A stretch of 64,000 nucleotides of DNA from an uncultured Planctomycetia bacterium (GCA_964431835.1 CAYSKO010000004.1:71519-135518); one strand, 5' to 3'. Positions 25,746-41,533 are shown, counted from the stretch's first letter. The notes: generated from the letters alone by a model not told the origin. Made by a program: numbers and translations.

Positions 25746-26431
25746 TCGGCCACCGCCGCTTTCTTCTCCTTGCGGAACGTGCAAACGAGCGAGAAGTCGA
25801 ACACGTCGGTCTCGCGGATTTTGCGCTGATTCATGTTCTGGAGCTCGATGGATTCGAAAAGAGTCGAGAGGTACGCGTTTTCCTTCAGGACCTTGATGAA
25901 CTTGCCGACGTACGCGGTCTCCTGTCCCTGCGCGACCACGGTGCCCTCAAGGAGCAGCGCGCGTTTCTTTTCCGTCTTCGCGCCCGCGGCCGCCTCGGCC
26001 GCCCGGCGCTTGCGCGCCGCCGATCCGGTGTCCCCCTTGCCTACGCCGCCGCCCGATTGGACGTCGGTGAGGCTCAGGCCGCGCAGCCAGACGCCTTTGG
26101 TGGTGGAATCCGAAAGCGCGTTGAGGAGTCTCGACCATTGGTACGGACGCGAAGCCACCACGTGCGCGTCCTTCAAGCGTACTTTGAGTCGCTGGATCGC
26201 CTCTTTGCGCTCGAGGATTTCCTTGTTCTGTTCCTTCAGCGAAACGATCGCTGACGACGTTGCCGCCGCGTCGACGCGCCGGAGGATTGCGAGGCACCCG
26301 AAGACAATTTGCAGACCGACGAACGCGGCAAGAAGGATCTTGAGTGTGCGCTTGATCGGAAGCTCGGGTAGGACGAAGGCGACGCTTTCCTTCTTTCGAA
26401 GATCCTCGGGAAGAAGATTGATTTCGATCAT
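25742..26431 (-). CDS. pilN: Pilus assembly protein PilN
   Basis: N-terminal INLLPED motif and a single TM helix. 4-nt overlap with pilM. Confidence 0.75.
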   Translation of the reverse strand: MIEINLLPEDLRKKESVAFVLPELPIKRTLKILLAAFVGLQIVFGCLAILRRVDAAATSSAIVSLKEQNKEILERKEAIQRLKVRLKDAHVVASRPYQWSRLLNALSDSTTKGVWLRGLSLTDVQSGGGVGKGDTGSAARKRRAAEAAAGAKTEKKRALLLEGTVVAQGQETAYVGKFIKVLKENAYLSTLFESIELQNMNQRKIRETDVFDFSLVCTFRKEKKAAVAE

Positions 26432-27447
26432 TTGGAGTTTCCCAGCCCGCGGAGGGCCATCCCGAGCGCGACGTTGAGCTCCGCCGAGTGGCTCGCCAGG
26501 AACTTTTGGTCGAGGTCTCCGAAGACCTGCATCTTTTTCATGTTGTCCCAGAGAGAGACCGTGTGCCCGAGTTCCTCGGTGAGGAGCTCGGGTGCCCCCA
26601 GCGAAAGCGCGCCGCCGCCGCTCATCCAGATCGCTTTCAGCTCCTCGCCGGCTTCGTTCTCGAAGTAGTCGATGGAATGGCGGATCTCGTCGATTAGCGG
26701 TTCGAAACCCTTCTGCGTGGCCGCGCGAAGCGCTTCAGCATCCTCGGGCGCGGCGGCTACTTTGAGTGCATCCGCCTCATCCTCGGTGATTTTGTTCGAG
26801 TCCGCGAGCGCTTTCGTCACTCCCTGCGCGCCCACGGGGATCTCGCGGACGAAAAAAGGCTGTTTGTCGTGGATGATCGCGAAGGAGCTGACGACGTGGC
26901 CGATATTGAGGATTCCGTACGAGCGGGAGTCTGCCTGGCCGTCGGCCAGCACCTCGAAGGCGTTCATCAGACAAAAGATGTCAACGTCGATGAGCTCGGG
27001 CTGGATGCTGATGTCGGAGAGGAGCTTGAGTCGCTCCTGAACGTAATCCTTCTTGGCCGCGACCAGGAGAACGTCCATCGTCTTCTTGGCCGCAGTTTGG
27101 TTCAGGATCTGGAAATCGAGGATGCAGTCGTCGATCGGGAAAGGGATGTGGCTCTCGGCTTCGAAGCGGATCGCGCCTTTTAACTCCGCGTGGGTCATGG
27201 AAGGCAGCGAGATACGGCGGATGAGAAGCGAGGAACCGGAGACGGAGATGCGGATGCGCTTGGAGGCGCCTTCGGCGTCGACGGAATACTGGATGGCCTT
27301 CCGGACGTCCTGCGGCGACATGCCTAGAAGCGGGTAAATGGACACCCGGTTCAGCTTAATTTCCTGCTGGCTTCGGGCGATCTCGACGCATTTCAGCGAA
27401 TAGCTGCCGATGTCGAGACCGACCGCCGCGAAATTTTTGGGTTTCAA
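26428..27447 (-). CDS. pilM: Type IV pilus assembly ATPase-fold protein PilM
   Basis: Actin-like fold with GLDIGSYSLKCVEI start. First gene of the pilMNOPQ block. Confidence 0.9.
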   Translation of the reverse strand: MKPKNFAAVGLDIGSYSLKCVEIARSQQEIKLNRVSIYPLLGMSPQDVRKAIQYSVDAEGASKRIRISVSGSSLLIRRISLPSMTHAELKGAIRFEAESHIPFPIDDCILDFQILNQTAAKKTMDVLLVAAKKDYVQERLKLLSDISIQPELIDVDIFCLMNAFEVLADGQADSRSYGILNIGHVVSSFAIIHDKQPFFVREIPVGAQGVTKALADSNKITEDEADALKVAAAPEDAEALRAATQKGFEPLIDEIRHSIDYFENEAGEELKAIWMSGGGALSLGAPELLTEELGHTVSLWDNMKKMQVFGDLDQKFLASHSAELNVALGMALRGLGNSK

Positions 27448-27538: not shown

Positions 27539-29539
27539 TCAAAGAGACGCGGCACGTTCGACGCGGGCGATCTCTTTTTCCAGTAATTTGGGATCTTTTT
27601 CGGACGATTCAAGGATGAGACGCCGCGCGGAGAGAAGCGTCGCGGCGCCTGAGCCGTCCCCCGCCAGGACGCGGGCCGCCAAGGCGTAACCCAGAGCCTC
27701 TTTTTCGTAGGCAGGGTAACGCGTCCGAACGAGTGTTTCGTAATCGCCGGCCGGCATCCGCCCGAGCATCGCGCGAGCCATGTCCCCGTACCACCCTTCC
27801 CCGCCCTCCGCCAACAAGACCTCGAGCTCCTGCCTCGTCTCGGTGTCCCGGCCATCGCGGTACAACGACAGCGAACGCGCGGCGCGGAGGATCGAACGCA
27901 GTTTCGGCTTTCCCTCGAAGGCCCGAAGCCCTTCGTCGGTCCAGCGCAGACCCAAGTCGAGTTTGCCGTCGAGTTCGTACGCAAGGAGAAGGTTCACGTA
28001 TAGACGCAGCTCTTCGGGCTGCATGCGCCAGGCAGCTTCGAAGGCTCCCGCCGCGTCCGCGTAGCGGCCCATCCCCATGAGCGCGACTCCAGCGTTCGTG
28101 AGCGCCGCCGAATCGGGGCCGTCCAGCGCGTACGCCTTCTTGAAATAGGGATAGGCGTCGGCGTAACGCTTCGTCTTAAGGAAATAAGCGCCCATGTTGA
28201 ACTGGTTCACCTCCGAAGTGGGATCGATGGCGAGCGCCGTGCGGAAATAAACCGCCGCCTTCCCCAGATCGCCGTTCTGAAAATAAATTCGCCCCAGGTT
28301 GAGGTGGCCGTAATAAGCATAGGGCGTATCGGACTTCGAGAGCGTGTCGTAAAACCGCTCGTTGTCGGAGTAGAACGTATTCCGCTGGTAGGTGCGGAGG
28401 GCGAAAAACGAGGAAAAAGCGAACGCCGCCGCGAACGCCGCGATCGCACAGGCCCGAGGAGCGGCGAGCGCTCGCGCGAGGCCGGCCGCCAAAACGAACG
28501 CGAATCCGATCGACGGAAAAAGGAAGTAATGCTCGGCCCACTGAGGATAAAACGGCACGATTTGGAGATAGGGGCCGAAAGAAAGCGCCGCCAGCGTGAG
28601 CCCGAAGAACGCCGCGCCGCGCCGCCGGAGCGCCATGATCCAGAGCGTAAGATAAGAGCCCACCACCGCGAGAGTGGCCGCGACACGCGGATCGGCGAAC
28701 GTCTTCACGAAAGCGATGGAATCGCAATATTTGAAGGGCTCGGGAAAAAGGAGGGCTCGGACGTAGCGGAGGTACGGGTCCCCCATCGAAAGAAGCCGGA
28801 GCGCGGCACCTTTCGCGTCTGTCACCGGCGGAGCCAGCGGCACCGCGCAGCCGAATTTACGAAAAAGAAGGAAAGCCGCTCCGACGGCCGCGTACGGCAC
28901 GAGCCTCCGGACGAGATCTTTGAAGGACGATCGCACGAACGCGACATCCAGCACGATAACGTAGAGCGGCAGAAGAATGCAGCTTTCCTTCGCGAAAAGG
29001 GAGATCGCGTACGCCGCGAGCGCGCCCGTCCGCTCTCCGCGCCAGTAAAGGAGGAGGGCCGAGAGCGTGAAAGCCGCGCCCAGAAGATCCCCACGGCTGG
29101 CGATATACGTGACCGACTCGGTGTGAATCGTGTTCACCGCGAACGCGAGCGCCGCGACGAAGGCCGCGCCCACATTTCCGGTCGCCCTGAAAAGAAGCCT
29201 GAGGAGAAGGAGCGCGATCCCGCAGTGGAGCGCGAGATTCGTCAGGTTGTATCCGAGCGGATTCAGTTTCCAGAAGCTGTAGTCGAGCGCGAACGTGACC
29301 GACGTGAGCGGCCGGTAGTACTGGGTCCAAGAGAGCGTGCGGTCCGTCTTGTAGAAAAAGCCGGTGGCGAAGAGTTCGGGCACGGAGGAAAGCTCGCGGA
29401 GAAGGGAGTTCTCCATGATGATCGATTCCTCGTCGAAAAGAAAGTTGTGCCCGAGAGAGGCGCTGTACAAAAGAACCAGCGCCGCGCAAAGGACGAAGCC
29501 GGCAAGAAAGACGGGGTGGCGGAAACGGTGAGTTCTCAA
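27539..29539 (-). CDS. TMTC-like GT-C-fold membrane glycosyltransferase with C-terminal TPR repeats (DUF1736-type)
   Basis: About 11 TM helices carrying an FLFDEES acidic loop motif, followed by TPR repeats (YGHLNLGRIYFQNGDLGKAAVYF...). TTG start. The gene sits between pilA and pilM. Confidence 0.7.
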   Translation of the reverse strand: MRTHRFRHPVFLAGFVLCAALVLLYSASLGHNFLFDEESIIMENSLLRELSSVPELFATGFFYKTDRTLSWTQYYRPLTSVTFALDYSFWKLNPLGYNLTNLALHCGIALLLLRLLFRATGNVGAAFVAALAFAVNTIHTESVTYIASRGDLLGAAFTLSALLLYWRGERTGALAAYAISLFAKESCILLPLYVIVLDVAFVRSSFKDLVRRLVPYAAVGAAFLLFRKFGCAVPLAPPVTDAKGAALRLLSMGDPYLRYVRALLFPEPFKYCDSIAFVKTFADPRVAATLAVVGSYLTLWIMALRRRGAAFFGLTLAALSFGPYLQIVPFYPQWAEHYFLFPSIGFAFVLAAGLARALAAPRACAIAAFAAAFAFSSFFALRTYQRNTFYSDNERFYDTLSKSDTPYAYYGHLNLGRIYFQNGDLGKAAVYFRTALAIDPTSEVNQFNMGAYFLKTKRYADAYPYFKKAYALDGPDSAALTNAGVALMGMGRYADAAGAFEAAWRMQPEELRLYVNLLLAYELDGKLDLGLRWTDEGLRAFEGKPKLRSILRAARSLSLYRDGRDTETRQELEVLLAEGGEGWYGDMARAMLGRMPAGDYETLVRTRYPAYEKEALGYALAARVLAGDGSGAATLLSARRLILESSEKDPKLLEKEIARVERAASL

Positions 29540-29545
29540 AAGAGT

Positions 29546-29583
29546 ATAAAAAACCCCCGCCGTTTTCCGGCGGGGGTTTTTCT
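29546..29583. terminator. Bidirectional-looking intrinsic terminator immediately downstream of pilA
   Basis: AAAAAA-CCCCCGCCG-tttt-CGGCGGGGG-TTTTTT hairpin with a 9-bp GC stem flanked by A and T tracts. Confidence 0.75.
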
Positions 29584-29598
29584 TCGATTCTTCTTACG

Positions 29599-29961
29599 TT
29601 ACGGCAGAACGTGCAGGTTCGTGCCGGCCGAGTTCGCGCAGACCGGGTTGATGCTGATCGCGCCGACCGTGTACGTCGAGGACGCGCCCGAGATCGGCTC
29701 TTCCGGAACCGCTCCGCCCTTGAGATACGCAGACATCTGCGCGGTCGTCGGGGTGGCGGTTTCGTCGAGCGGAACTTCCAGCGCGGCCTGGTCCTTCGCG
29801 GACGAGATGAGACGCATGTTGTTGATACACGTGTTGCGGCGAGCGGTCACGCGGGCCTGGACGAAGTTCGGCACCGCGATCGCGGCCAGAAGGCCGATGA
29901 TCGCCACGACGATCATGATTTCGACGAGCGTGAAGCCCATCGTATTTTTACGGATGATCAT
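29599..29961 (-). CDS. pilA: Type IVa major pilin (prepilin)
   Basis: MIIRKNTMG|FTLVEIMIVVAIIGLLAAIAVP is a class-III leader followed by the G/F cleavage site, Glu5 and the hydrophobic alpha1 helix. The C-terminal part has two Cys. I used the internal start because the 54-aa upstream extension in the track ORF is unsupported. Confidence 0.9.
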   Translation of the reverse strand: MIIRKNTMGFTLVEIMIVVAIIGLLAAIAVPNFVQARVTARRNTCINNMRLISSAKDQAALEVPLDETATPTTAQMSAYLKGGAVPEEPISGASSTYTVGAISINPVCANSAGTNLHVLP

Positions 29962-30154
29962 AGAAACACCCCTTTGTTCCCTCTCCGAACCGGAGAAGCC
30001 GTTCGAAGGGAGCTGTCCCGATAATCGAGGGGCCGGAAGTTTAGTAGGATGGCGGTTTCCGTCTTGCGCCCTCGCCTTACAATCTATTATCAGGATTCCC
30101 TTCCTTTGATCAAAGCATAACACTAGCTAACTGATTTGTCAATGGCCTTTCCAC

Positions 30155-31369
30155 TTAGTTCTGGACCAGGGTCGAGAGCTTGAAGATCGGCATGAACATA
30201 CAAATGACGATGCCGCCAATCACGATGCCTAAGAAAGCGATGACAAGGGGCTCGATGAGGCTCGTCAGAGCCGAAACGGAGGCGTCGACCTGGTCGTCGT
30301 AGAAATCGGCGATTTTGGTGAGCATCTTTTCGAGCTCGCCCGTCTGCTCGCCGACGGAGATCATGCGGACGACCAGCGGCGGGAACACCTTGCTGCGCAT
30401 GAGCGGGGTCGTGATGTTTTCGCCGTCCCGGATCGACTGCCTTACCTTCTCGATGGCGTTCTCGATGATGACGTTCCCCGAGGTCTTGCCGACGATCTCG
30501 AGCGCCTGGAGGATGGGGACGCCGGATTTGACGAGGGTCGCGAGCGTCCGGGTGAACTTGGAGACGGCCACCTTACGCAGCAGGATGCCGAAGATCGGCA
30601 TGCGGAGCTTCTGTGCGTCGAAGAAGAGCCTGCCCTTCTCGGTCTTTGCGAAGCGCTTGAGGAGCACGATGCCACCGAACGCGCCGCCCACCCAGATGAC
30701 GAAGCTCGCCAGAAGAAAGTCGCTGATGTTGATCAGGATCTGCGTCGGGAGAGGCAGCTCTCCGCCGAAATCCGCGAAGATGGATTTAAAGACCGGCACG
30801 ACCTTGAGCATGAGGACGAGCGTGATCGCCATCGCCATACAGACGACGACGGTCGGATAAACCATCGCGGATTTCACCTTGCGCACGAGATGGTCGGTCT
30901 TTTCGAGGTACGACGCCAGACGTTCCATGATGTCGTCGAGAGCACCCGAGGATTCGCCCGCTTTGACCATGTTCACGAAAAGCGGAGAGAACGCGCGCGG
31001 GTGCTTGCCGAGCGCTTCGTTGAAGCTCGAGCCGGTGGCGACGTCCTTCTTCACCTCGGCGACGATCGCCTTGAAACCCTTGTTGTCGATCTGTTCGGTC
31101 AGGATCTCGAGCGCCTGCATGAGCGGGATGCCCGAATCGATCATGGTGGCCAGCTGGCGCGAGAAAAGAACGAGTTCTTGAAGCTTGATCTTGCCGCCGC
31201 CCTTCGCCGCCTTTCCGATCTTCGCCTTCTGCTTGTCGGGCTTGAGCGTGATGACGACGAGTTCCTGTTTGCGCAGGATTTCGAGCATCGAGCGTTCGTC
31301 ATTGGCCTCCATGACCCCGGCAACCGAACGGCCGGAGCGGTCCTTGGCGGTGTAACGGTATGCGCTCAT
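30155..31369 (-). CDS. pilC: Type IV pilus platform protein PilC (GspF family)
   Basis: Two GspF repeats and three TM helices. Internal start MSAYRY. Confidence 0.9.
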   Translation of the reverse strand: MSAYRYTAKDRSGRSVAGVMEANDERSMLEILRKQELVVITLKPDKQKAKIGKAAKGGGKIKLQELVLFSRQLATMIDSGIPLMQALEILTEQIDNKGFKAIVAEVKKDVATGSSFNEALGKHPRAFSPLFVNMVKAGESSGALDDIMERLASYLEKTDHLVRKVKSAMVYPTVVVCMAMAITLVLMLKVVPVFKSIFADFGGELPLPTQILINISDFLLASFVIWVGGAFGGIVLLKRFAKTEKGRLFFDAQKLRMPIFGILLRKVAVSKFTRTLATLVKSGVPILQALEIVGKTSGNVIIENAIEKVRQSIRDGENITTPLMRSKVFPPLVVRMISVGEQTGELEKMLTKIADFYDDQVDASVSALTSLIEPLVIAFLGIVIGGIVICMFMPIFKLSTLVQN

Positions 31370-31371
31370 AA

Positions 31372-33090
31372 TTATTCGTCCTCCGAAGTGATGCGCAGGA
31401 CCTCGTCGAGCGTAGTGAGTCCCTGCGCGCATTTTCTCAGCGCGTCGTCCCGCAGGCTGGTCATACCGTTCTTCGCCGCGTGCTCGCGGATCTCGGCGGC
31501 GGAGGCCTTGCGCACGATCATGTCACGCATCGCGTCGTCGACGGTGAGCGCCTCGAGCACGCTCATGCGGCCGAAGTAACCGGTCTGATTGCATTTTTCG
31601 CACCCCTTCCCCTTCAGGAAGTTCCGCTTGGCGGGATCAGGGGCGAGTCTGTCGATGTTCACGTTCAGTCTTTCGAATACTTCCTTCGGCACTTCGATCT
31701 TCTCCTTGCAGTTCGGGCAAACCTTACGACAGAGGCGCTGGGCGCCGACCAGGACCACCGAGGAGGCGATCAGGAAGGGCTCCACGCCCATGTCCATGAG
31801 ACGCGTCATCGCGCCCGCGGCGTCATTGGTGTGGAGCGTGGATAGAACGAGCTGGCCCGTGAGCGAGGCCTTGATCGCGATGTCGGCGGTCTCGCCGTCG
31901 CGGATTTCGCCGACCATGACAACGTCGGGGCTTTGGCGAAGAATCGCTCGGAGACCGCTCGCGAAATCGAGCCCGATCTCGGCGCGCGCCTGGATCTGCG
32001 TGATGCCGCGCACCTGATATTCGATGGGGTCCTCGATCGTGATCACGTTCCTCTCCGGCGTATTGAGCTGGGAGAGGATCGAGTAAAGGGTCGTGGACTT
32101 GCCGCTTCCGGTTGGGCCGGTGATCAGGATCATACCGAAAGGCTTGGCGACCGCCTCCTGGAAGGCCTTCAGGGTGTCCGGAAAGAAGCCAAGATTCTCG
32201 AGGCCGAAGCTGAGCGCGCCCTTGTCGAGCACGCGCATGACGACCTTCGAGCCGAAATACACCGGCAGGATCGAGACGCGGAAATCGACCTCCTTCGCGG
32301 CAAGCTTCACCTTGAAACGGCCGTCTTGCGGCACGCGGTTCTCGGTGATGTCGAGTTTGGACATGATCTTGAGGCGTGTGAGGACGGCGTTCTGATTTTT
32401 CTTGGGGATCGTGAGTGCCTCTTCCAAACCGCCGTCGATGCGGTAACGCACGCGCACCGCTTTCTCGAACGGCTCGATGTGGATGTCGCTCGCACGGCGG
32501 CGCAGCGCCTCTTTCAGAATGAGATCCACGATCTTGACGACCGGGGCTTCCGAAGTCTGGGAACCGCCGCCCTCTTCGTCCCCCTTCACGACCTCCACGC
32601 TGCCGGAACCTCCGGAGGCGGCTTCCGCGATGGCGTTCATCGATTCGCCCGTGTCGCCGTAGAGCCGCTGAAGCGAGTCCGTGATGTCCTTTTCGATGCT
32701 AATGACGGCCTCGACCTTGCGGCGCGTGCAGATGGCGATGTCGTCGATGGCGAACACGTTGAACGGGTCGGACATCGCGATCGTAAGCGCGTTCCCGATC
32801 TCGGAGATCGGAACGATCTGGTGCTTGCGCGCGAGCTTCTCGGGCACGAGCCTTGAGAGCTCGGGATTGATCTTAATCTTGTTCAAATTGAGGAACGGAA
32901 TCTTGAGCTCCACCGAAACGAGCGAGAGGAGCTCGCGCTCGCTGATGAGACCCATCTTCACGAAGACGTCGCGGAGCTTGCCGCCTTCCTCCTTCGAATA
33001 CTGCGCGAGCGCGCGCTGGATGTCGGCCTCGCTGACCTTGCCCGTCTCTTTGAGGAGCTCGATGACCCGTTCCGAGAGATTCCGGCTCAC
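31372..33090 (-). CDS. pilB: Type IV pilus assembly ATPase PilB paralog 2 (GspE family, MshEN-type N-domain)
   Basis: Walker A GPTGSGKST, Asp/His boxes and a tetracysteine CxxC...CxxC. The N-terminus carries two MshEN-like 24-mer motifs. Its GTG start overlaps the stop of paralog 1 as GTGA. Confidence 0.9.
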   Translation of the reverse strand: MSRNLSERVIELLKETGKVSEADIQRALAQYSKEEGGKLRDVFVKMGLISERELLSLVSVELKIPFLNLNKIKINPELSRLVPEKLARKHQIVPISEIGNALTIAMSDPFNVFAIDDIAICTRRKVEAVISIEKDITDSLQRLYGDTGESMNAIAEAASGGSGSVEVVKGDEEGGGSQTSEAPVVKIVDLILKEALRRRASDIHIEPFEKAVRVRYRIDGGLEEALTIPKKNQNAVLTRLKIMSKLDITENRVPQDGRFKVKLAAKEVDFRVSILPVYFGSKVVMRVLDKGALSFGLENLGFFPDTLKAFQEAVAKPFGMILITGPTGSGKSTTLYSILSQLNTPERNVITIEDPIEYQVRGITQIQARAEIGLDFASGLRAILRQSPDVVMVGEIRDGETADIAIKASLTGQLVLSTLHTNDAAGAMTRLMDMGVEPFLIASSVVLVGAQRLCRKVCPNCKEKIEVPKEVFERLNVNIDRLAPDPAKRNFLKGKGCEKCNQTGYFGRMSVLEALTVDDAMRDMIVRKASAAEIREHAAKNGMTSLRDDALRKCAQGLTTLDEVLRITSEDE

Positions 33091-34853
33091 GAAAGCACCT
33101 CGTCGCGCACGGTCACGCGCATAACTTCCTCGGGAGTGGTGACGCCGGCGAAAATCTTGGCGATCCCGTTCTCGCGGAGCGTCTTCATCCCCTCGCGGCG
33201 ACCGACTTCCTTTATCTGGTATTCCTGCGCCCCTTTTAGAATGAGGGCACGAACGTCGGGAGAAAGAACGAGCGCCTCGAGGAGCACCGCGCGGCCCGAA
33301 TAACCTTTTTTTCCGCACGCGTCGCAACCGCGCCCCTTGTAGATGAGCGGCTTCTCGACTCTTTTCAATTCTTCGGGCGTGACGCCCAGCTGTTTCAGAA
33401 GCTCGGGCGACGGTTCGTAGCTTTCCTTGCAGGCGTTGCAAATCTTTCGAACGAGGCGCTGGGAACCGGCGAGCAGCACCGAGGAGGTGATGAGGAAAGG
33501 CTCGATCCCCATGTTCACAAAACGAGTGACCGCTCCGGCGGCGGTCGTCGCGTGGAGCGTGGAGAGAACCAGATGCCCGGTGAGTGCCGCCTTGATCGCA
33601 ACGTCAGCCGTTTCGCCGTCGCGGATCTCGCCAACCATGATGATGTCGGGGTCCTGGCGGAGGATCGAGCGAAGAGCGGCGGCGAACGTGAGTTTCACCT
33701 CGGAACGAATCGCGACCTGGTTGATACCTTCGATTTGAAATTCCACGGGGTCTTCCACCGTGATGATATTTTTATCGGGCGAGTCGACGAGCTTGAGAAC
33801 CGAATAGAGAGTGGTCGTTTTGCCGGCGCCGGTCGGGCCGCAGACGACGATCATGCCGTGCGGATGCTTGGACGCGTCGCGCAGCGCCTGGAGCGGCTCG
33901 GGTTCGAAGCCGAGTTTCGTGAGGTCGAGAATGGCCTGGCTCTTGTCGAGCACGCGCAGAACCACCTTCTCTCCCCAGTAGGTCGGGAGCACCGACACGC
34001 GGAAATCGACGTACTTGTCGTTCACCTTGATCTTGAAACGGCCGTCCTGGGGCACGCGGTGCTCGGCGATATCCAAATTCGACATGACCTTGATGCGCGA
34101 AACGACGCCGGAGTGCATGACTCGGTTGGTGGTGACGCCCTCCTGCAGCATGCCGTCCACGCGAAAACGCACGCGCATGCTCTTTTCCTCGGGCTCGATG
34201 AAGATGTCGCTCGCCCGACGACGGACCGCCTCGAACATGATCGAGTTCGTGAGCTTGACGACGGGCTCCTCGTCCATGAGCCGCATGAGTTCCTGCGCCG
34301 AACCCTCCTGGCTCGCGGAAGCCTCGGCTAGCTCGATAGAATCCCCACCTGCCTCCATGTCCTTGACGGCGTCCTGAAGGCTCTGCGAGACGTTTTCGCC
34401 GTGGTACTGTTCGATCGCTTCGCGGATCTCCTTCTCCCCCGCGAGCACGGGGCGGATCTGGAGCTTCGTTGCACGGCGCACATCGTCGATCGCCTGGACG
34501 TTGAGAGGGTCGGCCATCGCGAGCGTCAGGGAATCGCCAGAGCGCGAGACGGGTAGGATGCAGTAAAGATCGACGAGTTTTTTGGGCACGAGCTTCACGA
34601 TATCCGGCTCAAGCTTCATCTTCGACGGGCGCACGATGGGAACATCGAGTTCGGCCGAGAGGACTTCGAGCAGGTTCTCGCGCGAGATGTATCCGAGGCG
34701 AACGAGAATGTCCCCGATCTTTTCCTTTTTGTCCTTCTGAATCTTCAGCGCCTCTTCGAGCTTCTCCGGCGTGATGAGCCCCTTTTTAAGGAGCACGCTC
34801 CCCAGGCGCTCTTTGAGGGTGATCCGTTTGGGACCGTCGCCGTCTTTGGTCAT
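33087..34853 (-). CDS. pilB: Type IV pilus assembly ATPase PilB paralog 1 (GspE family, MshEN-type N-domain)
   Basis: Walker A GPTGAGKTT, tetracysteine, and N-terminal RLGSVLLKKGLITPEKLEEALKIQ / KIGDILVRLGYISRENLLEVL motifs. ATGA overlap with the upstream gene. Confidence 0.9.
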   Translation of the reverse strand: MTKDGDGPKRITLKERLGSVLLKKGLITPEKLEEALKIQKDKKEKIGDILVRLGYISRENLLEVLSAELDVPIVRPSKMKLEPDIVKLVPKKLVDLYCILPVSRSGDSLTLAMADPLNVQAIDDVRRATKLQIRPVLAGEKEIREAIEQYHGENVSQSLQDAVKDMEAGGDSIELAEASASQEGSAQELMRLMDEEPVVKLTNSIMFEAVRRRASDIFIEPEEKSMRVRFRVDGMLQEGVTTNRVMHSGVVSRIKVMSNLDIAEHRVPQDGRFKIKVNDKYVDFRVSVLPTYWGEKVVLRVLDKSQAILDLTKLGFEPEPLQALRDASKHPHGMIVVCGPTGAGKTTTLYSVLKLVDSPDKNIITVEDPVEFQIEGINQVAIRSEVKLTFAAALRSILRQDPDIIMVGEIRDGETADVAIKAALTGHLVLSTLHATTAAGAVTRFVNMGIEPFLITSSVLLAGSQRLVRKICNACKESYEPSPELLKQLGVTPEELKRVEKPLIYKGRGCDACGKKGYSGRAVLLEALVLSPDVRALILKGAQEYQIKEVGRREGMKTLRENGIAKIFAGVTTPEEVMRVTVRDEVLS

Positions 34854-35287
34854 GACTTGTAGCAACGCTTGATCGCCTCGTTTACGTCTGTCGCCGTGGA
34901 CACGAAAACCTGTACCTTGAGATGCGTGACCGTCTCGACGTCCTCGATCGCCGGCGCGTTGAGAGGGTTCGACATCGCGATGGTCACGACCCCGCCAATG
35001 CGGTCGACCGCGATGAGCCCGTACTGCTTGGCGACGTTCTCCGGAATCAGCTTCGCGACGTCGGTCTCGATGTCATATCCGGATAGCGGCAGAAAAGGGA
35101 AGCCGTACTGCGCCGTCAGCGCCTGCGCGATCGCTTCCTCCGTCGTGTGCCCCAGCGCCACGAGGATCTGGCCGATCAGCCCGCCCTTCTCCTTCTGGAC
35201 CCCGAGCGCTTCCGTCAAATTCTCGGGCGTGATCAACTTGCTGTCGATCAAAAGTTCCCCGAGTTGTTTCTGTATGATCTTTTTCAT
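34850..35287 (-). CDS. Stand-alone MshEN / GspE-N-terminal domain protein (putative c-di-GMP receptor)
   Basis: 145 aa with no ATPase domain. It contains the tandem motifs LGELLIDSKLITPENLTEALGVQ and LIGQILVALGHTTEEAIAQALTAQ, which match the MshEN c-di-GMP-binding consensus, plus the T2SSE_N fold remainder. Confidence 0.7.
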   Translation of the reverse strand: MKKIIQKQLGELLIDSKLITPENLTEALGVQKEKGGLIGQILVALGHTTEEAIAQALTAQYGFPFLPLSGYDIETDVAKLIPENVAKQYGLIAVDRIGGVVTIAMSNPLNAPAIEDVETVTHLKVQVFVSTATDVNEAIKRCYKS

Positions 35288-35305
35288 TCGATTCCATCGA
35301 AAGCT

Positions 35306-36412
35306 TTACCGGAACAGTGATTTTTTTGCGGGCTCCTGAGAGGTCGTCGGCTGCAGGAGACGCTCGAGTTCCTGGACGTCCGAAGAGCGGCTGTAAGCGG
35401 ACTCTCGCGTGATCTTGCCGGTGTTCACGAGCTCCGCGAGGCTCATATTGAGCGTCTTCATGCCCTCCTTCTGTCCCATCTGAATCGCCGAATAGATTTG
35501 GTGCGATTTCGAATCGCGGATCAGCGTGCGCACGGCGTTGTTCGCGAGGAGGATCTCCGGCGCAAGCGCGAGGCCCCCGCCGATCTTGCCGATCAGCTGC
35601 TGCGAGATGACCGCCTGGAGCACGAAGGACACCTGCACGCGAACCTGTTGCTGCTGATGCGCCGGGAACACGTCGATGATACGGTTGATCGACTGCACCG
35701 CGTCCGGCGTGTGCAGCGTCGCGAACACCAAGTGACCGGTTTCCGCGACGGTGAGCGCGATCTCGATCGTTTCCAAATCGCGCATTTCTCCGATCAGGAT
35801 GACGTCGGGATCCTGACGTAGGACATGCTTGAGCGCCTGGTTGAACGAATGTGTATCGGAGCCGACCTCACGCTGATTGATCGTCGCCTTCTTGTTCTTG
35901 AAGATGAACTCGATGGGATCCTCGACCGTGACGATGTGGACCTCCTGCGTCGAGTTGATGTGGTCGATCATCGCCGCGAGAGTGGTGGTCTTGCCGCTGC
36001 CGGTCGCGCCCGTGACGAGCACGAGCCCCGACGGACGGTCGGTCAGCTGTTGGGCGACATGGAGCGGGAATCCGATCTGCTCGAACGTCTTCGGATCGAA
36101 CGGCAGCGCGCGGATGGCCGCGGCGATCGCGCCTCTCTGGAAGAAGAGGTTTACGCGGAACCGGCCAAGACCGTTCACGCCGAACGAATAGTCGAGTTCG
36201 CGCTCCCGTTCGAAAATCTTGAACCGTTCCTCGGAAAGGTGCTGACGGATCAGCCGCACCATGTAGTCGTGGTTGAAGAGGTCGGGAGAAATCTCGACGA
36301 GATCCCCGTCCACGCGCATCGTCGGTTTCACGCCGTCGCCGATATGAAGATCGGAGGCGCGGCTCTTGACGGCGAATTCAAGCAGTTCTGCGAGCGTCTT
36401 TTCGGAAGCCAT
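35306..36412 (-). CDS. pilT: Twitching-motility retraction ATPase PilT
   Basis: 368 aa with Walker A GATGSGKTT, a conserved AIRALP-type motif and the PilT C-terminal region. No MshEN domain or tetracysteine. Confidence 0.92.
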   Translation of the reverse strand: MASEKTLAELLEFAVKSRASDLHIGDGVKPTMRVDGDLVEISPDLFNHDYMVRLIRQHLSEERFKIFERERELDYSFGVNGLGRFRVNLFFQRGAIAAAIRALPFDPKTFEQIGFPLHVAQQLTDRPSGLVLVTGATGSGKTTTLAAMIDHINSTQEVHIVTVEDPIEFIFKNKKATINQREVGSDTHSFNQALKHVLRQDPDVILIGEMRDLETIEIALTVAETGHLVFATLHTPDAVQSINRIIDVFPAHQQQQVRVQVSFVLQAVISQQLIGKIGGGLALAPEILLANNAVRTLIRDSKSHQIYSAIQMGQKEGMKTLNMSLAELVNTGKITRESAYSRSSDVQELERLLQPTTSQEPAKKSLFR

Positions 36413-36448
36413 CGTGTGTCCCTCTCCTTTACGGTTGTCTTCGAATCC

Positions 36449-37324
36449 TTACGCGAAGGCCTCGATGAGGTCCCCGCCCTTGCGGCGCGCCTCGGCGGCA
36501 CGGTCCCTCGCCTTGATGAAAAGCTCCTGACCGCTCACGCCATCGAGAGGATTTTCGCTGAGCCCTATCGAGAGCGACAGGCGCTCCTCCGCCGGCTCGG
36601 AGCGGAACGTCTCGGCCTTGGCGAGATCCGTCCTGATCGCCTCCAGAATCGAGATCGCCTTCTTTTTATTCTTGTCCGGAAGGATCACGGCAAATTCGTC
36701 GTTCGAGATGCGCGCCGCGCGGTCGAATTCCGCGGTGTGGCGACGCAGGATGTCGGCGATGTCCTTCAGCGTCTTTTCGGCTACCGCTTCCCCCAGCGCA
36801 TTTCGGTGCGCGTCAAAATTGAGGATGGAGAGATAAGCGAACGAGCACGGACGCTGGAAGTGGATCGCGCGCTCGATCTCTTCGTTCAGCCTCTCCCGGA
36901 TATAGGAGGCGTTGTGGAGTCCGGTTAGCTTGTCCTTCAGCGAAAGTTTTTCGACGCGGTCCAAGAGTTCGCGCGCGTTGAGCGAGATCGTACGGAGGCT
37001 CTTCGAAAGCTCCTCGATCTCGTCGTTACCCTTCATCGCGGGAACCTCGACTGAACGGCCGTCCGCCAGCTTCCTCGCGGTCGCGGCGACCGCCGCGATC
37101 GGAGTCACCATCTGTTTGGTGATCTGGTAGCCGAGGAAAGCCAGGAAACCGCTAACCCCCATGATGATGCTCACGAGCGTCAGGTCGTTGCTTTCGAACG
37201 GCCACCGGATGAAGAGCGAGGCCACGTACAAGCCCACGAGAAGCGGCAGCACCGACATGAGGCTGAAGGCCACGGCCAGCTGATATCTGATCTTCGTGGG
37301 CATGATATGGAAACCACGGGACAT
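36449..37324 (-). CDS. Membrane HAMP-GGDEF protein with degenerate active site (SNDEF)
   Basis: Two TM helices, a HAMP domain and a GGDEF fold in which GG(D/E)EF is replaced by RISNDEF. It is immediately upstream of pilT with a 36-nt gap. Confidence 0.8.
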   Translation of the reverse strand: MSRGFHIMPTKIRYQLAVAFSLMSVLPLLVGLYVASLFIRWPFESNDLTLVSIIMGVSGFLAFLGYQITKQMVTPIAAVAATARKLADGRSVEVPAMKGNDEIEELSKSLRTISLNARELLDRVEKLSLKDKLTGLHNASYIRERLNEEIERAIHFQRPCSFAYLSILNFDAHRNALGEAVAEKTLKDIADILRRHTAEFDRAARISNDEFAVILPDKNKKKAISILEAIRTDLAKAETFRSEPAEERLSLSIGLSENPLDGVSGQELFIKARDRAAEARRKGGDLIEAFA

Positions 37325-37347: not shown

Positions 37348-37376
37348 ATAATATACTATATGTTAAAATTAGTCAA
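37348..37376 (-). promoter_or_regulatory. sigma70-type promoter for the GGDEF-pilT-pilB-pilC transcription unit (TTGACT-N17-TATTAT)
   Basis: AT-rich 84-nt gap. The minus strand reads TTGACT aattttaacatatagta TATTAT, followed by an AGGA RBS 8 nt before the ATG. Confidence 0.5.
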
Positions 37377-37407: not shown

Positions 37408-38526
37408 TTAGAAGAGGGGGCGGTGCATTTTGACGTTGAGGAGGATGGAGACGGAAAACATCGTCACGAGGACCGACGTTCCTCCGTAACTCACGAGAGG
37501 CAAAGGAACTCCGACGACTGGCAGGAGGCCCATCGTCATGCCGAGATTGATCACCGCCTGGCTGCCGATCAGCGTCGTGATGCCGCACGCGAGTTGGCTT
37601 CCGAAACGGTCCGGCGTTTCCCCGGCGATGTCGTAGCCTTTCTTGACGAGCAGTCCGAAAAGAAAGATGAGAGCGACCGAAGCGATAAAGCCGCCCTCCT
37701 CCCCCACTACCCCGAAGATGAAATCCGTGTGACGCTCGGGAAGGAACGCCAGGCGGTTCTGGGTGCCTCCCATAAATCCTTTGCCGAAGAAACCCCCCGA
37801 GCCGATCGCGATTTTCGACTGGTTGATCGTGTAGCCCGCGCCGAGAGGGTCCGCATTCGGATTCACGAACACCATGAGCCTCGCCTTCTGATAATCCTTC
37901 AGCGTGTGAAAAAGGATTGGCGTCATGAGAAGGCCTGCGCCGATGATGATCGCGAGATATTTTTTACGGAAACCCCAGAGGTAAAGCATCGAAAAAAGGG
38001 CGGGCAGGAGCAGAAGGCCGGTTCCGAGATCCGGCTGTTTCAAAATGAGGAGGAACGGCACGCCGACGATGGCGAACGGAGCGAAGAGTTTTCTCTTCGA
38101 TAGATATTCCGGCCGGTTCGCGGCGAAAAAGCGTGCCAAGACCAGAATGACGCCGATTTTCGCGATCTCGGATGGCTGGATGTTGAACCCGCCGAAACCG
38201 ATCCAGCGCCGCGCTCCCAGACGCGCCGGCATGAAGAACACCGCAACCAGGAGAACAAGGCTCCCGAGATAAATCGGCCACGCGACGTCCTGGAGCTTGA
38301 AGTAGTCCGTCCGGAGCGCCAGAAATGCGACCAGGATTCCGACGCCCATCCACATCACCTGCTTCATCGCCAGGGTCTGGTCGAACGTCTGATTCGTCTT
38401 GAACGAGGCGCTGTAGATGGAAAGGATACCTATCAAGAAAATCGCAATCGGCGCGAAGAAGAGCATTTTGTCGAAATGCCTTAAATCGAAGCGCTTTCTC
38501 ACAGGTATCCGGCTCCCTTCAGCCAT
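37408..38526 (-). CDS. rodA: Rod shape-determining protein RodA (SEDS family)
   Basis: 10-TM FtsW/RodA/SpoVE signature with PLPLVSYGGTS near the C-terminus. Confidence 0.9.
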   Translation of the reverse strand: MAEGSRIPVRKRFDLRHFDKMLFFAPIAIFLIGILSIYSASFKTNQTFDQTLAMKQVMWMGVGILVAFLALRTDYFKLQDVAWPIYLGSLVLLVAVFFMPARLGARRWIGFGGFNIQPSEIAKIGVILVLARFFAANRPEYLSKRKLFAPFAIVGVPFLLILKQPDLGTGLLLLPALFSMLYLWGFRKKYLAIIIGAGLLMTPILFHTLKDYQKARLMVFVNPNADPLGAGYTINQSKIAIGSGGFFGKGFMGGTQNRLAFLPERHTDFIFGVVGEEGGFIASVALIFLFGLLVKKGYDIAGETPDRFGSQLACGITTLIGSQAVINLGMTMGLLPVVGVPLPLVSYGGTSVLVTMFSVSILLNVKMHRPLF

Positions 38527-40241
38527 TCGAGAACATCCTGAACGATCGGCGCCGCCGCCACGCCTCCGCGGCCGCCGCCTTCGAGGAAGACCGCGACCGC
38601 GACCTTCGGCTTTTCGGCCGGTGCGTAGGCGACGAACCAGGCGTGCGTCTCACGCTGGCCAGACTGGGCGGTTCCGCTCTTTCCGGCTACGCGCACCCCG
38701 TCCAGGCGCGCGAGCCTGCCGGTGCCTGTGTCCGAGTGAACGACGGCCTCGAGACCCCTCTTCACCGCGGCAAGGTCCGCCGGGTCGGCGTCGAGCGGCT
38801 TGGTGTAGCGCTCCGAGACCTTTACGCCGTTGATTTTCTCGATCACGTGCGGCTGGAGTTTTTCACCTCCGGTCGCCACCGCCGCGGTCATCGCCATGGC
38901 CTGGATCGGCGTGACCTGCAGGTAGCCCTGGCCGATCGAGAGATTCGCAGTCTCCCCATCGTACCATCCCTGACCCGTCGTCTTCTTCTTCCATTCCCGG
39001 GTCGGGATGAATCCCCGGCGCTCGCCCGGCAAGTCGATCCCGCTCAGCTCCCCGAAACCGAAAGCGGCGTTCCGTTCGAGGATCGCATCCAAACCGGCCG
39101 AGAGGCCCGCGGAATAAAAGTAGGCGTTACACGAATGCGCGAACGCTTCCTCGAGATCCTGCGATCCGTGCCCTTCCTTCTTCCAGCATGGGAAGCGGCG
39201 GCCGCCGACTAGGAGCCACCCCGGGCAGTTCACTCGGGTCGAGGGCGACATCTTGCGGCGTTTGAGCGACGCCATCGAAGTGACGATCTTGTAGATCGAA
39301 CCCGGCGGGTACGCGCCGCGTATCGCGCGGTTCAGCATCGGGGCGCGCGGGTCGGTGAGGTAGCGTCCGACGCGACGGCGGCCCTGGGACGTCGCGAACA
39401 GATTCGGATCAAACGACGGCGAGCTATTGAGAGAAAGGATGCCGCCCTCGGCGAGATCCATCACGACGACCGCGCCTTTCGCTCCGCCAAGCTTCGTATG
39501 GACGAGGCTCTGCAGACGCGCGTCGACGGTGAGCTGGATGTTCTTGCCGTCCTTGGGCTCCTTCACGCCGAGCGGTTTCACGATGCGGCCGCGGCTGTTG
39601 ATCTCTATTTGAAGGCCGCCCGAGCGGCCGCGCAGGAACGCTTCGTAGCCCTTCTCGATGCCGTCGCGGCCGACCCAGTCGGAGGCGGCGTACTCGTAGA
39701 GGTCGCGGTCCTCCGCTTCTTCCCGCGTCTGCGAACCGATGTAGCCGGTCACGTGGGCGGCTGCTTCGGCGAGCGGGTATTGTCTTTGCGGGCGCGTCTC
39801 GATCACGAATCCGGGAAGGCGGTCGAGCCGCTCCTCGATCGCGATGGCGGCTTCCTGTGGAATGTCTTCCGCGAGGACCACAGAGTTGAACGACGAGCCG
39901 GCACGGCGTTTCTCGAATCGCTTCTCGAGTTCTTCCGGTTCGACTCCGAGGATGGGGGCTACGATACGGCAGCTCTTATGGAGCTTCGACGCGGCTTCGC
40001 GCGGCACGACGGAGCAATTGAAACTGAGGCGGTTCGTGACCAGCGTAAGACCGTTGCGATCGACGATCTTGCCCCGGGGACCTTCGAGATAGATGACGCG
40101 GATACGGTTCTTCTCGGAGAGCGTCTTGTAGCGCGGTCCCTCGAAGATCTGCATGCGCGCGGCGTTCACGAGAAGAAGCGCGAAGCACGTGAGGACGACG
40201 AGCTGGAGCCGGCGCGCCTTTTCGTCGCCGCGATGGAACAC
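38499..40241 (-). CDS. mrdA: Penicillin-binding protein 2 (elongasome transpeptidase)
   Basis: PBP dimerisation domain plus a transpeptidase domain with the SxxK (PGSIYK), SxN and KSGT motifs. Confidence 0.9.
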   Translation of the reverse strand: MFHRGDEKARRLQLVVLTCFALLLVNAARMQIFEGPRYKTLSEKNRIRVIYLEGPRGKIVDRNGLTLVTNRLSFNCSVVPREAASKLHKSCRIVAPILGVEPEELEKRFEKRRAGSSFNSVVLAEDIPQEAAIAIEERLDRLPGFVIETRPQRQYPLAEAAAHVTGYIGSQTREEAEDRDLYEYAASDWVGRDGIEKGYEAFLRGRSGGLQIEINSRGRIVKPLGVKEPKDGKNIQLTVDARLQSLVHTKLGGAKGAVVVMDLAEGGILSLNSSPSFDPNLFATSQGRRRVGRYLTDPRAPMLNRAIRGAYPPGSIYKIVTSMASLKRRKMSPSTRVNCPGWLLVGGRRFPCWKKEGHGSQDLEEAFAHSCNAYFYSAGLSAGLDAILERNAAFGFGELSGIDLPGERRGFIPTREWKKKTTGQGWYDGETANLSIGQGYLQVTPIQAMAMTAAVATGGEKLQPHVIEKINGVKVSERYTKPLDADPADLAAVKRGLEAVVHSDTGTGRLARLDGVRVAGKSGTAQSGQRETHAWFVAYAPAEKPKVAVAVFLEGGGRGGVAAAPIVQDVLEWLKGAGYL

Positions 40242-40247
40242 TCTTTC

Positions 40248-40754
40248 CTATCTCCAGACGGCCGCGCGGGCCGGACGCACGTCCGAGACGCGCTTGAGGA
40301 ACGGGAAAATAATGGGTCCGGTCATCGCCGCGAGGAACGCCTGCGGCCAGGAGAACGCCTCAAAAAAGATTCCCCACCCGAGCGCCTCGCCGCCGCGTAG
40401 CGACGACTGGAAAACGAGAAGGCTCAAGATCGACGCGAGATAATTGCAAAGCGGCGGAAGGAGGATCTGGGTGAGCAGTCCTTCGCGGAAAAGTTTCGTG
40501 GAAAGGGAGCCCGCGGCGATTCCCACGAGGCCGAGCGTGATCATCTGCCAGCCGATGCGGCCCGCTGAAAAAAGCTCGAGGAACACTCCGGCGAAGCAAC
40601 CGGCCGCGAGGCCCGCGACGGGCCCGCCCGAAAGACCGTAAAACACCACGCCCACGAGGAGGAGCGGAGGCGTGTTGCGCAGGAAGACGTAATGCAGCGC
40701 GTTCTGCGCGAGAAAGAGCACGAAGAGCCAGAGGAAGGCGCGGTTATTCGACAA
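40248..40754 (-). CDS. mreD: Rod shape-determining protein MreD
   Basis: 168-aa polytopic membrane protein located between mreC and mrdA. Confidence 0.8.
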   Translation of the reverse strand: MSNNRAFLWLFVLFLAQNALHYVFLRNTPPLLLVGVVFYGLSGGPVAGLAAGCFAGVFLELFSAGRIGWQMITLGLVGIAAGSLSTKLFREGLLTQILLPPLCNYLASILSLLVFQSSLRGGEALGWGIFFEAFSWPQAFLAAMTGPIIFPFLKRVSDVRPARAAVWR

Positions 40755-41520
40755 CGAGCACCTCTTCGAGCCGGTTCAAGTCCGCGAACGGCTTCACGTC
40801 GGCGACCTGATAAATTTGCCCCGGCTCCTTCCACACGCGCTGGATGGTGCCGACGAGCAGCCCCTTCGCCGCGGAAGCGCCGACGCCGCCCGTTTCGACG
40901 AGATCCCCTTTCTTCACCTCGTGATCCACGGAGAGGTATTTGATGCGACATCCGCCCGACAAAGTGCCGAAAAGGATGCCCGGCTGGCGCGTCCGCTGGA
41001 CGAGCGCACCCACGCGGGAATTGGGGTCGGTGACGAGGAGGACGAGCGAGACGTTCGGCCACGATTCGGCGACACGACCCGCGAGCGCGCGCTCGGCGAG
41101 TACGCCCATGCCGGGGCGGATGCCGTCCTTCGATCCCTTGTCGATCAGGAACACGCGGTTCCACGTGGACGGCGAGCGGCCGATGACGCGGCAAACGACG
41201 GCTTTTTTAAGCGGGGGCGGGATGGACTGCTTGATGTCCAGGAGCTTCGTCAAACGGCGGTTCTCCGAGAGCGCTTCGCGCGTCTGAAACCGCACCTCGC
41301 GCGATTCGCCGAGCGCGTGGCGCAGAAGGCGGTTCTCCTTCGCGTTGCGGCGGAAGTACCAGAGGTCGAGCGTCCAGCCGGCGGCGGCGCGCGAGACGGC
41401 CACGGGGCCTCGGACAAAAGCGTACAGGAAATTTTTGAGGGGAGTGGTTGCGGAGAGAGGAAGAGCGGTCAAGACCAAAAGAACGAGAAAGACTGCGAGA
41501 ATCGTGCGCTTCTTCAGCAC
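40744..41520 (-). CDS. mreC: Rod shape-determining protein MreC
   Basis: N-terminal TM helix, coiled coil and C-terminal beta domains. Confidence 0.85.
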   Translation of the reverse strand: MLKKRTILAVFLVLLVLTALPLSATTPLKNFLYAFVRGPVAVSRAAAGWTLDLWYFRRNAKENRLLRHALGESREVRFQTREALSENRRLTKLLDIKQSIPPPLKKAVVCRVIGRSPSTWNRVFLIDKGSKDGIRPGMGVLAERALAGRVAESWPNVSLVLLVTDPNSRVGALVQRTRQPGILFGTLSGGCRIKYLSVDHEVKKGDLVETGGVGASAAKGLLVGTIQRVWKEPGQIYQVADVKPFADLNRLEEVLVVE

Positions 41521-41533
41521 ACTGAAGCCCTTC

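Follow-up and report, generated by a model that had tools for sequence, protein, structure and literature searches.

A six-gene operon on the minus strand of a 64,000-nucleotide (nt) stretch of DNA from an uncultured Planctomycetia bacterium (GCA_964431835.1, CAYSKO010000004.1:71519-135518; the whole stretch is called the window here) encodes the core motor of the type IVa pilus in Omnitrophota. The operon, at positions 30155–37324, encodes a HAMP-GGDEF protein, the retraction ATPase PilT, a 145-residue protein that is a free-standing MshEN domain, two paralogous extension ATPases (PilB1 and PilB2) and the platform protein PilC. Omnitrophota are ultra-small, probably host-dependent or predatory bacteria. 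The sensing of cyclic diguanosine monophosphate (c-di-GMP) by MshEN domains fused to an ATPase is already known; what differs here is that the apparently competent MshEN domain is made as a separate protein beside two PilBs. We think it somewhat probable that this 145-residue protein would serve as the c-di-GMP receptor of the motor, acting in trans on PilB1 and PilB2 as a split version of multi-MshEN ATPases such as PilF.

The free-standing MshEN gene lies at 34850–35287 (minus strand). An earlier description made from the DNA alone (the sequence-only reading) had called its product essentially an MshEN domain and nothing else, and profile searches agreed: the domain is complete, scoring 65 bits against PF05157 (cut-off 23.1), a model that spans the α/β subdomain and not the ligand-binding helices, and 56.7 bits against NF053729, a 53-residue model of the c-di-GMP motif with a curated cut-off of 38 bits. 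A four-helix bundle carries the tandem motifs, QLGELLIDSKLITPENLTEALGVQ (motif I, QLG...Q) and LIGQILVALGHTTEEAIAQALTAQ (motif II, LIG...Q), separated by a 5-residue spacer, and is followed by the α/β subdomain; every ligand-contact position is kept. In sequence the protein matches the N-domains of PilF (E 4e-46, the best match in the Protein Data Bank), of Geobacter and Myxococcus PilB, and of MshE (5HTL, E 5e-14). Its AlphaFold2 model, with a mean predicted local distance difference test score (pLDDT) of 86.9, has four helices and then a three-stranded α/β unit with helices. When the model was submitted to Foldseek, the top hit was the crystal structure of MshE with c-di-GMP, 5HTL (template modeling score 0.78–0.81 over 138 columns), and the next were the GSPII domains of PilF. 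Vibrio cholerae MshE (5HTL; PMC5013675) shares with the free-standing protein the two-subdomain, 145-residue fold, the tandem 24-residue motifs with their 5-residue spacer and the link to a type IVa extension ATPase, and the crystallised MshEN(1-145) construct has exactly the same length. In MshE, however, the domain is the N-terminus of the ATPase, whereas in the present module it is a polypeptide of its own, with its gene just upstream of those for two ATPases whose MshEN domains have largely decayed. The residues that open the two motifs also differ, Gln and Leu here versus Arg and Arg in MshE.

We found 1681 homologs of the 145-residue protein at E ≤ 1e-3, the top 120 of which are 70–100% identical and almost all 144–150 residues long, and a scan of one genome per GTDB species placed relatives in at least 582 genomes. 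Synteny and alignments were taken from the best-scoring 80 loci of these genomes and describe the closer part of the family. In the alignment of 81 orthologs the length is constant (144–155 residues). The Gly at motif position 3 is kept in 81/81 sequences in motif I and in 79/81 in motif II, with the same two counts for the Gln at position 24. The hydrophobic residue at position 2, mostly Leu, is near-invariant in both motifs, and other hydrophobic positions are conserved too. Motif II opens with Leu in 79 of the 81 orthologs; in PilF's GSPII-B domain, a Leu at this place goes with an affinity of 6 nM (PMC11731258). Within the α/β subdomain, QYGFPxLPL and NPLN are near-invariant. No other protein of the module is as conserved: identities are 57–82%, compared with 47–73% for the PilBs, and the mean column identity over the first 80 residues is 69%, versus 48% and 51%. 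Against the closest relatives, the nonsynonymous rate (dN) is 0.12–0.14 and the synonymous rate (dS) at least 1.4, giving a dN/dS of about 0.08. From this pattern of substitution, the gene is clearly translated and under strong constraint. The possibility that the open reading frame (ORF) is a pseudogene or the leftover of a third pilB was ruled out by its constant length, its low dN/dS and a conservation above that of its neighbors.

The two ATPase genes, pilB1 (33087–34853, minus strand, 588 residues) and pilB2 (31372–33090, minus strand, 572 residues, GTG start), are both full length, as had been proposed, with T2SSE domains that cover positions 3–370 and 2–370 of the 370-position model. 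PilB1 scored 456.9 bits against T2SSE, 72.8 bits against PF05157 and 66.4 bits against NF053729; the values for PilB2 were 454.7, 82.2 and 30.5 bits, the last below the 38-bit cut-off. The PilB equivalog model TIGR02538 (cut-off 675.65) was the top family for both, at 650.5 bits for PilB1 and 634.6 bits for PilB2, both just under. Neither passes the GspE model (601 and 614 bits; cut-off 630.25) or the TfpB model NF053534 (432.6 bits for PilB1 and 478.6 bits for PilB2; cut-off 850). Motif I of PilB1, RLGSVLLKKGLITPEKLEEALKIQ, is perfect (RLG...Q), and motif II, KIGDILVRLGYISRENLLEVLSAE (KIG...E), has Glu in place of the final Gln. PilB2 has an MshEN fold with degenerate c-di-GMP motifs (RVIELL... 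and KLRDVF...E), in which Gly3 is replaced by Ile in motif I and by Arg in motif II, and the final position is shifted in motif I and Glu in motif II. PF05157 recognizes all three N-termini, while NF053729 recognizes those of the free-standing protein and PilB1 and not that of PilB2. The claim that all three proteins carry the tandem motif is therefore right for the free-standing protein and PilB1 and wrong for PilB2, with both Gly3 residues replaced and a sub-threshold score. The lost binding of XpsE has been attributed to substitutions among which are Val or Leu for Gly at motif position 3 and the exchange of the last Gln (PMC5013675), and in PilF one Gln-to-Glu change lowered the affinity about 80-fold, while two abolished binding (PMC11731258). 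Because PilB2 is altered at motif positions at which changes abolish or weaken binding in XpsE and PilF, we predict that the PilB2 N-domain does not bind c-di-GMP. The PilB1 N-domain is predicted to bind it less well than an ideal motif would.

The same residues have drifted in the PilB orthologs. Among 72 PilB1 sequences, Gly3 is kept in 14 (motif I) and 19 (motif II), and Gln24 in 65 and 3; the corresponding counts among 69 PilB2 sequences are 0 and 38 for Gly3 and 24 and 15 for Gln24. Among the replacements are Val and Ile for Gly at position 3 and Glu for Gln at position 24, and changes at these two positions have been reported to abolish or weaken binding in XpsE and PilF (PMC5013675, PMC11731258). 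The tandem core motif is present in 76/81 free-standing proteins, 2/72 PilB1 and 0/69 PilB2 orthologs. The curated NF053729 model, applied at about its 38-bit cut-off, is more lenient than these residue counts, passing 81/81, 69/72 and 34/69, respectively. The gradient of motif retention among the three sets of aligned sequences is robust. As PilB2 has lost the binding signature, and PilB1 too in most of the phylum, sensing appears to have been delegated to the detached domain.

PilB1 and PilB2 are 45.5% identical to each other. In a neighbor-joining tree of 141 sequences, one branch parts all 72 first-position from all 69 second-position PilBs, and this clean split implies that the duplication predates the divergence of the sampled genomes; together with the low identity, it rules out a recent tandem duplication. 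The Walker A motif, Asp box, Walker B motif, His box and four zinc-binding Cys residues are present in both PilBs of the window and conserved in the 72 and 69 orthologs, and by these motifs both look catalytically competent. Decay of one copy was ruled out, with a full-length T2SSE domain and all catalytic motifs found in about 70 orthologs of each. The His box of PilB2 (residues about 411–420) reads TGQ in all 69 orthologs, versus TGH in PilB1, PilT and other family members, which by alignment is a fixed, paralog-specific change in a catalytic motif. Since the cluster has one pilC and one set of pilMNOQ, both ATPases presumably serve a single platform.

Three further genes complete the operon, all on the minus strand: the HAMP-GGDEF gene (36449–37324, 291 residues), pilT (35306–36412, 368 residues) and pilC (30155–31369, 404 residues). 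Six co-oriented genes fill exactly the span in which the sequence-only reading had seen a head-to-tail string, and their coordinates agree with the gene calls of the Omnitrophota source contig, Ga0163151_10000275 in JGI metagenome 3300020057. Pfam and NCBIfam gave the same domain names for all six. PilT scored 456.2 bits against TIGR01420 (cut-off 319.1), and its sole Pfam domain is T2SSE, consistent with the stated lack of an MshEN domain. PilC has two T2SSF domains, and PilC models are its best NCBIfam matches (451 bits). This gene content is indeed a departure from the canonical pilB-pilT-pilC layout. In the order of transcription, from the GGDEF gene through pilT, the MshEN gene, pilB1 and pilB2 to pilC, the intergenic gaps are 36, 18, −4, −4 and 2 nt. 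The start of pilB1 overlaps the stop of the MshEN gene in ATGA, and the predicted GTGA overlap of the pilB1 stop with the pilB2 start can be read directly at 33090–33087. Neither pilB gene has an obvious Shine-Dalgarno sequence, which fits translational coupling. Upstream of the GGDEF gene, within the 83-nt spacer that separates it from rodA, is a candidate sigma-70-like promoter (TTGACT-17-TATTAT, 37348–37376, minus strand) that matches 10/12 consensus positions. A single promoter for the operon, as had been suggested, is plausible from this site; rodA, however, lies 83 nt upstream on the same strand, and read-through from the mre/rodA genes is possible.

The arrangement is conserved. Where a locus extends at least 3.7 kb downstream of the free-standing MshEN gene, PilB1 and PilB2 come next in 67/67 cases, and where it extends at least 5.2 kb, PilC comes after them in 51/51. 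The lone domain and a double pilB, whose co-occurrence the sequence-only reading had set down for analysis, thus go together in all of these loci. Median gaps are 2 nt between the MshEN gene and pilB1, 4 nt between pilB1 and pilB2 and 3 nt between pilB2 and pilC, and the first of these is at most 30 nt in 59/71 loci. Of 69 loci, 53 have a GGDEF-type gene upstream and 55 have pilT. Both genes are dispensable at this position in some genomes, whereas the free-standing MshEN protein, PilB1, PilB2 and PilC are invariant among the loci long enough to judge. The arrangement was present in all related loci examined, which puts it far beyond chance, and for the phylum as a whole this layout is the norm and not a local oddity. 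No member of the same free-standing family was seen outside Omnitrophota: every named homolog, even at 38–45% identity, is labelled Omnitrophota or Omnitrophica, with the caveat that some titles of metagenome-assembled genomes in the scan read 'uncultured Planctomycetia' and one 'Eisenbacteria'.

More distant single-domain relatives (38–45% identity) occur in the same kind of operon with variations. Locus L088 (GCA_029263055.1, 7090–11374) has a canonical RYGGDEF protein with RxxD five residues upstream, then the free-standing MshEN protein, a single PilB, PilC and a PilS/PilR-like two-component pair; this one-PilB form, found further out in the family, represents either the state before the duplication or a secondary loss of one pilB. 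Locus L090 (GCA_053996315.1) has the free-standing MshEN protein, two PilBs, an HD-GYP-type protein and PilC, with no GGDEF gene upstream. The HD-GYP-type protein (11821–12861, 346 residues), encoded between the second pilB and pilC, has the HD, HHE and GYP motifs of c-di-GMP phosphodiesterases of this type and a receiver-like N-terminus. In a third locus (L091) the upstream slot holds a single-domain receiver protein. The invariant core is the free-standing MshEN protein, one or two PilBs and PilC, and the adjoining signalling slot is filled by differing c-di-GMP or two-component proteins in different lineages. In two genomes (L081, 10104–12287, and L051, 10852–12450), an insertion of 1.6–2.3 kb parts pilB1 from pilB2 and encodes a protein of about 540 residues with an N-terminal hydrophobic segment; the L081 insertion also carries a single-domain receiver protein. 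Fused forms exist elsewhere, four proteins with an MshEN-MshEN-T2SSE architecture (P0133, P0178, P0205, P0241) and one with four MshEN domains before the T2SSE domain (P0121). Two other architectures were also seen: P0183 (723 residues) combines MshEN, PilZ and DUF7305, that is, two different c-di-GMP receptor domains in one chain, and P0123 (297 residues) has two MshEN domains and no ATPase.

The first gene of the operon had been described as encoding a HAMP-GGDEF(SNDEF) protein, correctly: a profile search finds a HAMP domain (26.4 bits, marginal against a cut-off of 25) and a degenerate GGDEF domain (90 bits), and the protein is membrane-anchored, with two N-terminal hydrophobic segments. 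The GGDEF signature reads SNDEF (residues 207–211), and AEFD stands where the inhibitory RxxD site would be, five residues before the signature. For comparison we aligned 66 sequences, the window protein and 65 orthologs at the same position. The signature is GGDEF in 8 and AGDEF in 2; the others include GRGEF, TSDKF, ADDEF, TKEEF and many singletons. The Arg of the inhibitory site is present in 4/66 and absent from 62/66. Despite this drift, parts of the GGDEF fold are conserved (LTGLxN, RP, R205, F211 and SEN.xDG). The SNDEF and AEFD sequences and the variability among orthologs rule out this protein as a cyclase in the window genome and speak against an inhibitory-site receptor. Of the suggestion that a cyclase-dead GGDEF protein could be a receptor or scaffold, the cyclase-dead part stands; a receptor role is unlikely because the Arg is lacking here and in nearly all orthologs and the signature varies widely. 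The protein is most likely a decayed local signalling or scaffold component, to judge from its sequence. It is not obligate: in three loci (L027, L032, L047) rodA is directly followed by the free-standing MshEN gene, and in another (L092) the C-terminal domain in this slot is GAF-like instead.

Starting from the observed gene content, domain identities, motif states, fold, conservation, synteny and duplication age, we infer c-di-GMP binding by the 145-residue protein, a physical association with the PilBs and a direction of regulation. The protein would bind one c-di-GMP in its four-helix bundle and associate in a ligand-dependent way with the PilB1/PilB2 motor or with a docking site on PilM or PilC. 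It would then gate either docking of the ATPase ring on the PilM/PilC base or the activity of the ring, so that pilus extension is gated against PilT-driven retraction. Its job would be the one that, in other bacteria, falls to the additional N-terminal MshEN/GSPII domains carried in cis by PilF-type ATPases, and the existence of fused multi-MshEN ATPases suggests, by the argument from fused versus split genes, that the detached domain may work physically with the ATPase ring. The near-invariant ligand contacts, the invariant second subdomain, the co-translation with pilB1 and the lack of gene loss fit a working motor subunit better than a sponge or a remnant. The sequence signatures support a link of the module to c-di-GMP, as do enzyme-type genes in the same operon of relatives, the canonical GGDEF protein with RxxD and the HD-GYP protein described above. 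In this respect the sequence-only reading, which had proposed a type IV pilus motor module linked to c-di-GMP, was borne out by the signatures, the motif retention in 81 orthologs and these enzyme-type genes.

Several points weigh against a receptor acting in trans. Motif I of the free-standing protein opens with Gln and not with Arg, Lys or Leu, and its position 10 is Lys and not Gly, for which reason it does not match the relaxed pattern of Wang et al. when that is read literally, a pair of 24-residue motifs (R/K/L)LGxx(LVI)(LVI)xxG(LVI)(LVI)xxxxLxxxLxxQ with a 5-residue spacer. The high pass rate of PilB1 orthologs on NF053729 (69/72) means that their 'loss' rests on a few key residues and not on the profile score. 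In the window genome PilB1 even outscores the free-standing protein on this model (66.4 versus 56.7 bits), and judging from its motifs this PilB1 may sense c-di-GMP itself. The ORFs scanned across the 64-kb window belong to housekeeping and polysaccharide functions, and among them we found neither an active cyclase or phosphodiesterase nor any further c-di-GMP gene.

The closest known parallel to the unequal set of three domains is Thermus thermophilus PilF (PMC11731258; 6F8L, 8PDK, 9G1W), which also has three MshEN-type (GSPII) domains per motor unit, one non-binding, one very tight with Leu opening motif II, and one moderate. Here, PilB2 looks non-binding, the free-standing protein has that Leu, and PilB1 is intermediate. 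The three PilF domains are in cis on one ATPase, whereas here they are spread over three polypeptides, two of them full ATPases; each PilB has one MshEN domain, not the two or more in cis that define a PilF-type ATPase, and the extra domain is its own ORF. Acinetobacter baylyi (PMC8213720; PMC11656802) likewise has two PilB-family extension ATPases per pilus machine, PilB and TfpB, and a small motor regulator, the PilB-binding inhibitor CpiA. The Omnitrophota paralogs differ in that they are not TfpB orthologs and are adjacent and translationally coupled, and the small protein is an MshEN domain unrelated to CpiA. In the FimX-PilZ-PilB system of Xanthomonas and Pseudomonas (PMC8389850), a PilB whose own N-domain is dead is likewise acted on in trans by a c-di-GMP receptor, and a degenerate GGDEF protein is part of the circuit. 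There, however, the EAL domain of FimX serves as receptor, with PilZ as the bridge; the present module has neither EAL nor PilZ, and the candidate receptor is the MshEN protein.

The sequence-only reading had also proposed two ATPases with different affinities for c-di-GMP. On this account, which we regard as distinctly unlikely, each PilB would sense the ligand through its own N-domain, giving two tuned motors, and the free-standing MshEN protein would be a buffer that titrates c-di-GMP. The PilBs of the window do differ in motif quality, PilB1 with a perfect motif I and 66.4–70.5 bits on NF053729 and PilB2 degenerate, and PilF is an example of a single motor whose MshEN-type domains are about 50-fold apart in affinity or fail to bind (PMC11731258). 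The account fits the window genome in this sense and fails for the design conserved in the phylum: with the PilB1 motif Gly kept in just 14/72 and 19/72 orthologs, the motif II Gln in 3/72 and the PilB2 motif I Gly never, the conserved design does not rely on PilB sensing. Nor would a pure sponge need near-invariant QYGFPxLPL and NPLN motifs in its second subdomain or translational coupling to pilB1. That subdomain could instead make the free-standing protein a decoy or brake, competing with the PilB N-domains for docking on PilM, PilN or PilC and inhibiting extension, an inhibition that c-di-GMP might relieve or strengthen. In GspE/EpsE, the PilM paralog GspL/EpsL is bound through the α/β subdomain of the N-domain (PMC8389850), a subdomain of this type with invariant surface motifs is present in the free-standing protein, and A. 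baylyi offers a known case of two motors with a small inhibitor that acts selectively (PMC8213720, PMC11656802). We nevertheless consider a decoy quite improbable, as one would not expect an inhibitor to exceed all other members of the operon in conservation, never to be lost and to be co-translated with the very ATPase that it blocks; the fused MshEN-MshEN-ATPase forms argue for a working motor part and not an antagonist, and there is no sequence relation to CpiA.

A receptor in trans leaves room for different arrangements of the two ATPases. PilB1 and PilB2 could form separate homohexamers on one PilC with different tasks, for example one for priming and one for processive extension, one for each of two pilins, or one for the pilus and one for DNA uptake or secretion, and the MshEN protein would select which one engages. 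Both paralogs keep every catalytic motif across a deep split, many related loci have two pilin genes downstream, PilB and TfpB of A. baylyi both contribute to extending one pilus (PMC8213720), and the GSPII domains of PilF separate twitching from DNA uptake (PMC11731258). We hold such a division of labor to be rather doubtful: the window cluster has only one pilin gene, neither paralog matches TfpB, and the near-universal adjacency of pilB1 and pilB2, with frequent start/stop overlap and a median gap of 4 nt, points to equal co-production, a better fit to a joint complex. From the tight coupling and strict co-retention we lean toward a joint PilB1/PilB2 complex over alternating homohexamers. 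Its fullest form, an obligate three-protein motor in which a mixed hexamer of equally produced paralogs has the split-off c-di-GMP-sensing N-domain as a reversibly binding subunit, is a tentative idea that we rate as rather unlikely. If true, extension would be controlled by recruiting and releasing a detachable sensor and not by allostery within one ATPase chain, and the module would provide the first PilB motor of heteromeric type and the first trans-acting MshEN receptor. The free-standing MshEN protein could also bind no nucleotide, or hold c-di-GMP only as a permanent structural cofactor, and be a purely structural subunit of the ring. The Gln and Lys at positions 1 and 10 of motif I would suit such a role, the authors of the PilF study raise c-di-GMP as a structural component for very tight binders (PMC11731258), and in XpsE and Xanthomonas PilB the fold remains in place without binding (PMC5013675, PMC8389850). 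The invariant positions, however, are the c-di-GMP contacts of 5HTL (the position-2 hydrophobic residue, Gly3, the Leu triads and both Gln residues), and in the two PilB N-domains of those genomes, which have this fold too, these positions drift freely; a purely structural subunit is, in our estimate, quite improbable.

We found no description of this layout in the literature searched. Type IVa pili do appear in the Omnitrophota papers, which say nothing of PilB duplication, GGDEF or c-di-GMP; such pili are reported as near-universal in the phylum and thought to mediate host attachment (PMC10066038). A c-di-GMP switch on the pilus motor would thus be a candidate control point for host attachment. 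A 2024 review of PilB cofactors (PMC11656802) left open why some bacteria need several PilB homologs and whether mixed oligomers form, described the role of the MshEN/N1 domain in catalysis as poorly understood, and did not list a free-standing MshEN cofactor. The module looks like a natural dissection of the PilB problem, in which the sensor is a separate 145-residue protein that should express easily and two ATPase paralogs are retained side by side across a whole phylum. The occurrence of MshEN as a widespread family of single-domain proteins, with members in at least 582 species genomes, also matters for censuses of c-di-GMP receptors.

The motor operon belongs to a complete type IVa pilus cluster whose genes all lie on the minus strand. 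Downstream of pilC lies a pilin gene (29599–29961, 120 residues) with an N-terminal methylation motif, served alone by a promoter-like site (30114–30142) and followed by a strong terminator (29548–29582). Next are a tetratricopeptide repeat (TPR) protein gene (27539–29416), pilM (26428–27447), pilN (25742–26431), pilO (25110–25745), a small gene (about 24676–25023, about 115 residues) and the secretin gene pilQ (23106–24692). The product of the small gene has no Pfam match, and its place between pilO and pilQ suggests a PilP-like lipoprotein. No c-di-GMP riboswitch or other known RNA element reached the gathering score anywhere in the window, and a scan of 29.4–38.7 kb for RNA families gave only weak chance matches, on the pilin terminator. 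A 601-residue ORF on the plus strand (28304–30109), antisense to the TPR and pilin genes and with no Pfam hit, is most likely spurious in DNA of 60% G+C.

Directly upstream of the motor operon and co-oriented with it is a cell-shape cluster (37408–42607, minus strand) of mreB, mreC, an mreD-like gene, the gene for PBP2 and rodA. In 46/80 loci rodA lies at most 5.9 kb upstream of the module. The linkage of rod-shape cluster and pilus operon recurs in many Omnitrophota, distant ones included, and could mean that cell-wall growth and pilus assembly are co-regulated. Further along the window, at 51602–63993 (minus strand), is a polysaccharide biosynthesis cluster with a carbamoyltransferase, a WecG/TagA-type transferase, a BNR/sortilin-repeat protein, several GT2 and GT4 glycosyltransferases, a Wzy-type polymerase/ligase and a hexapeptide acyltransferase.

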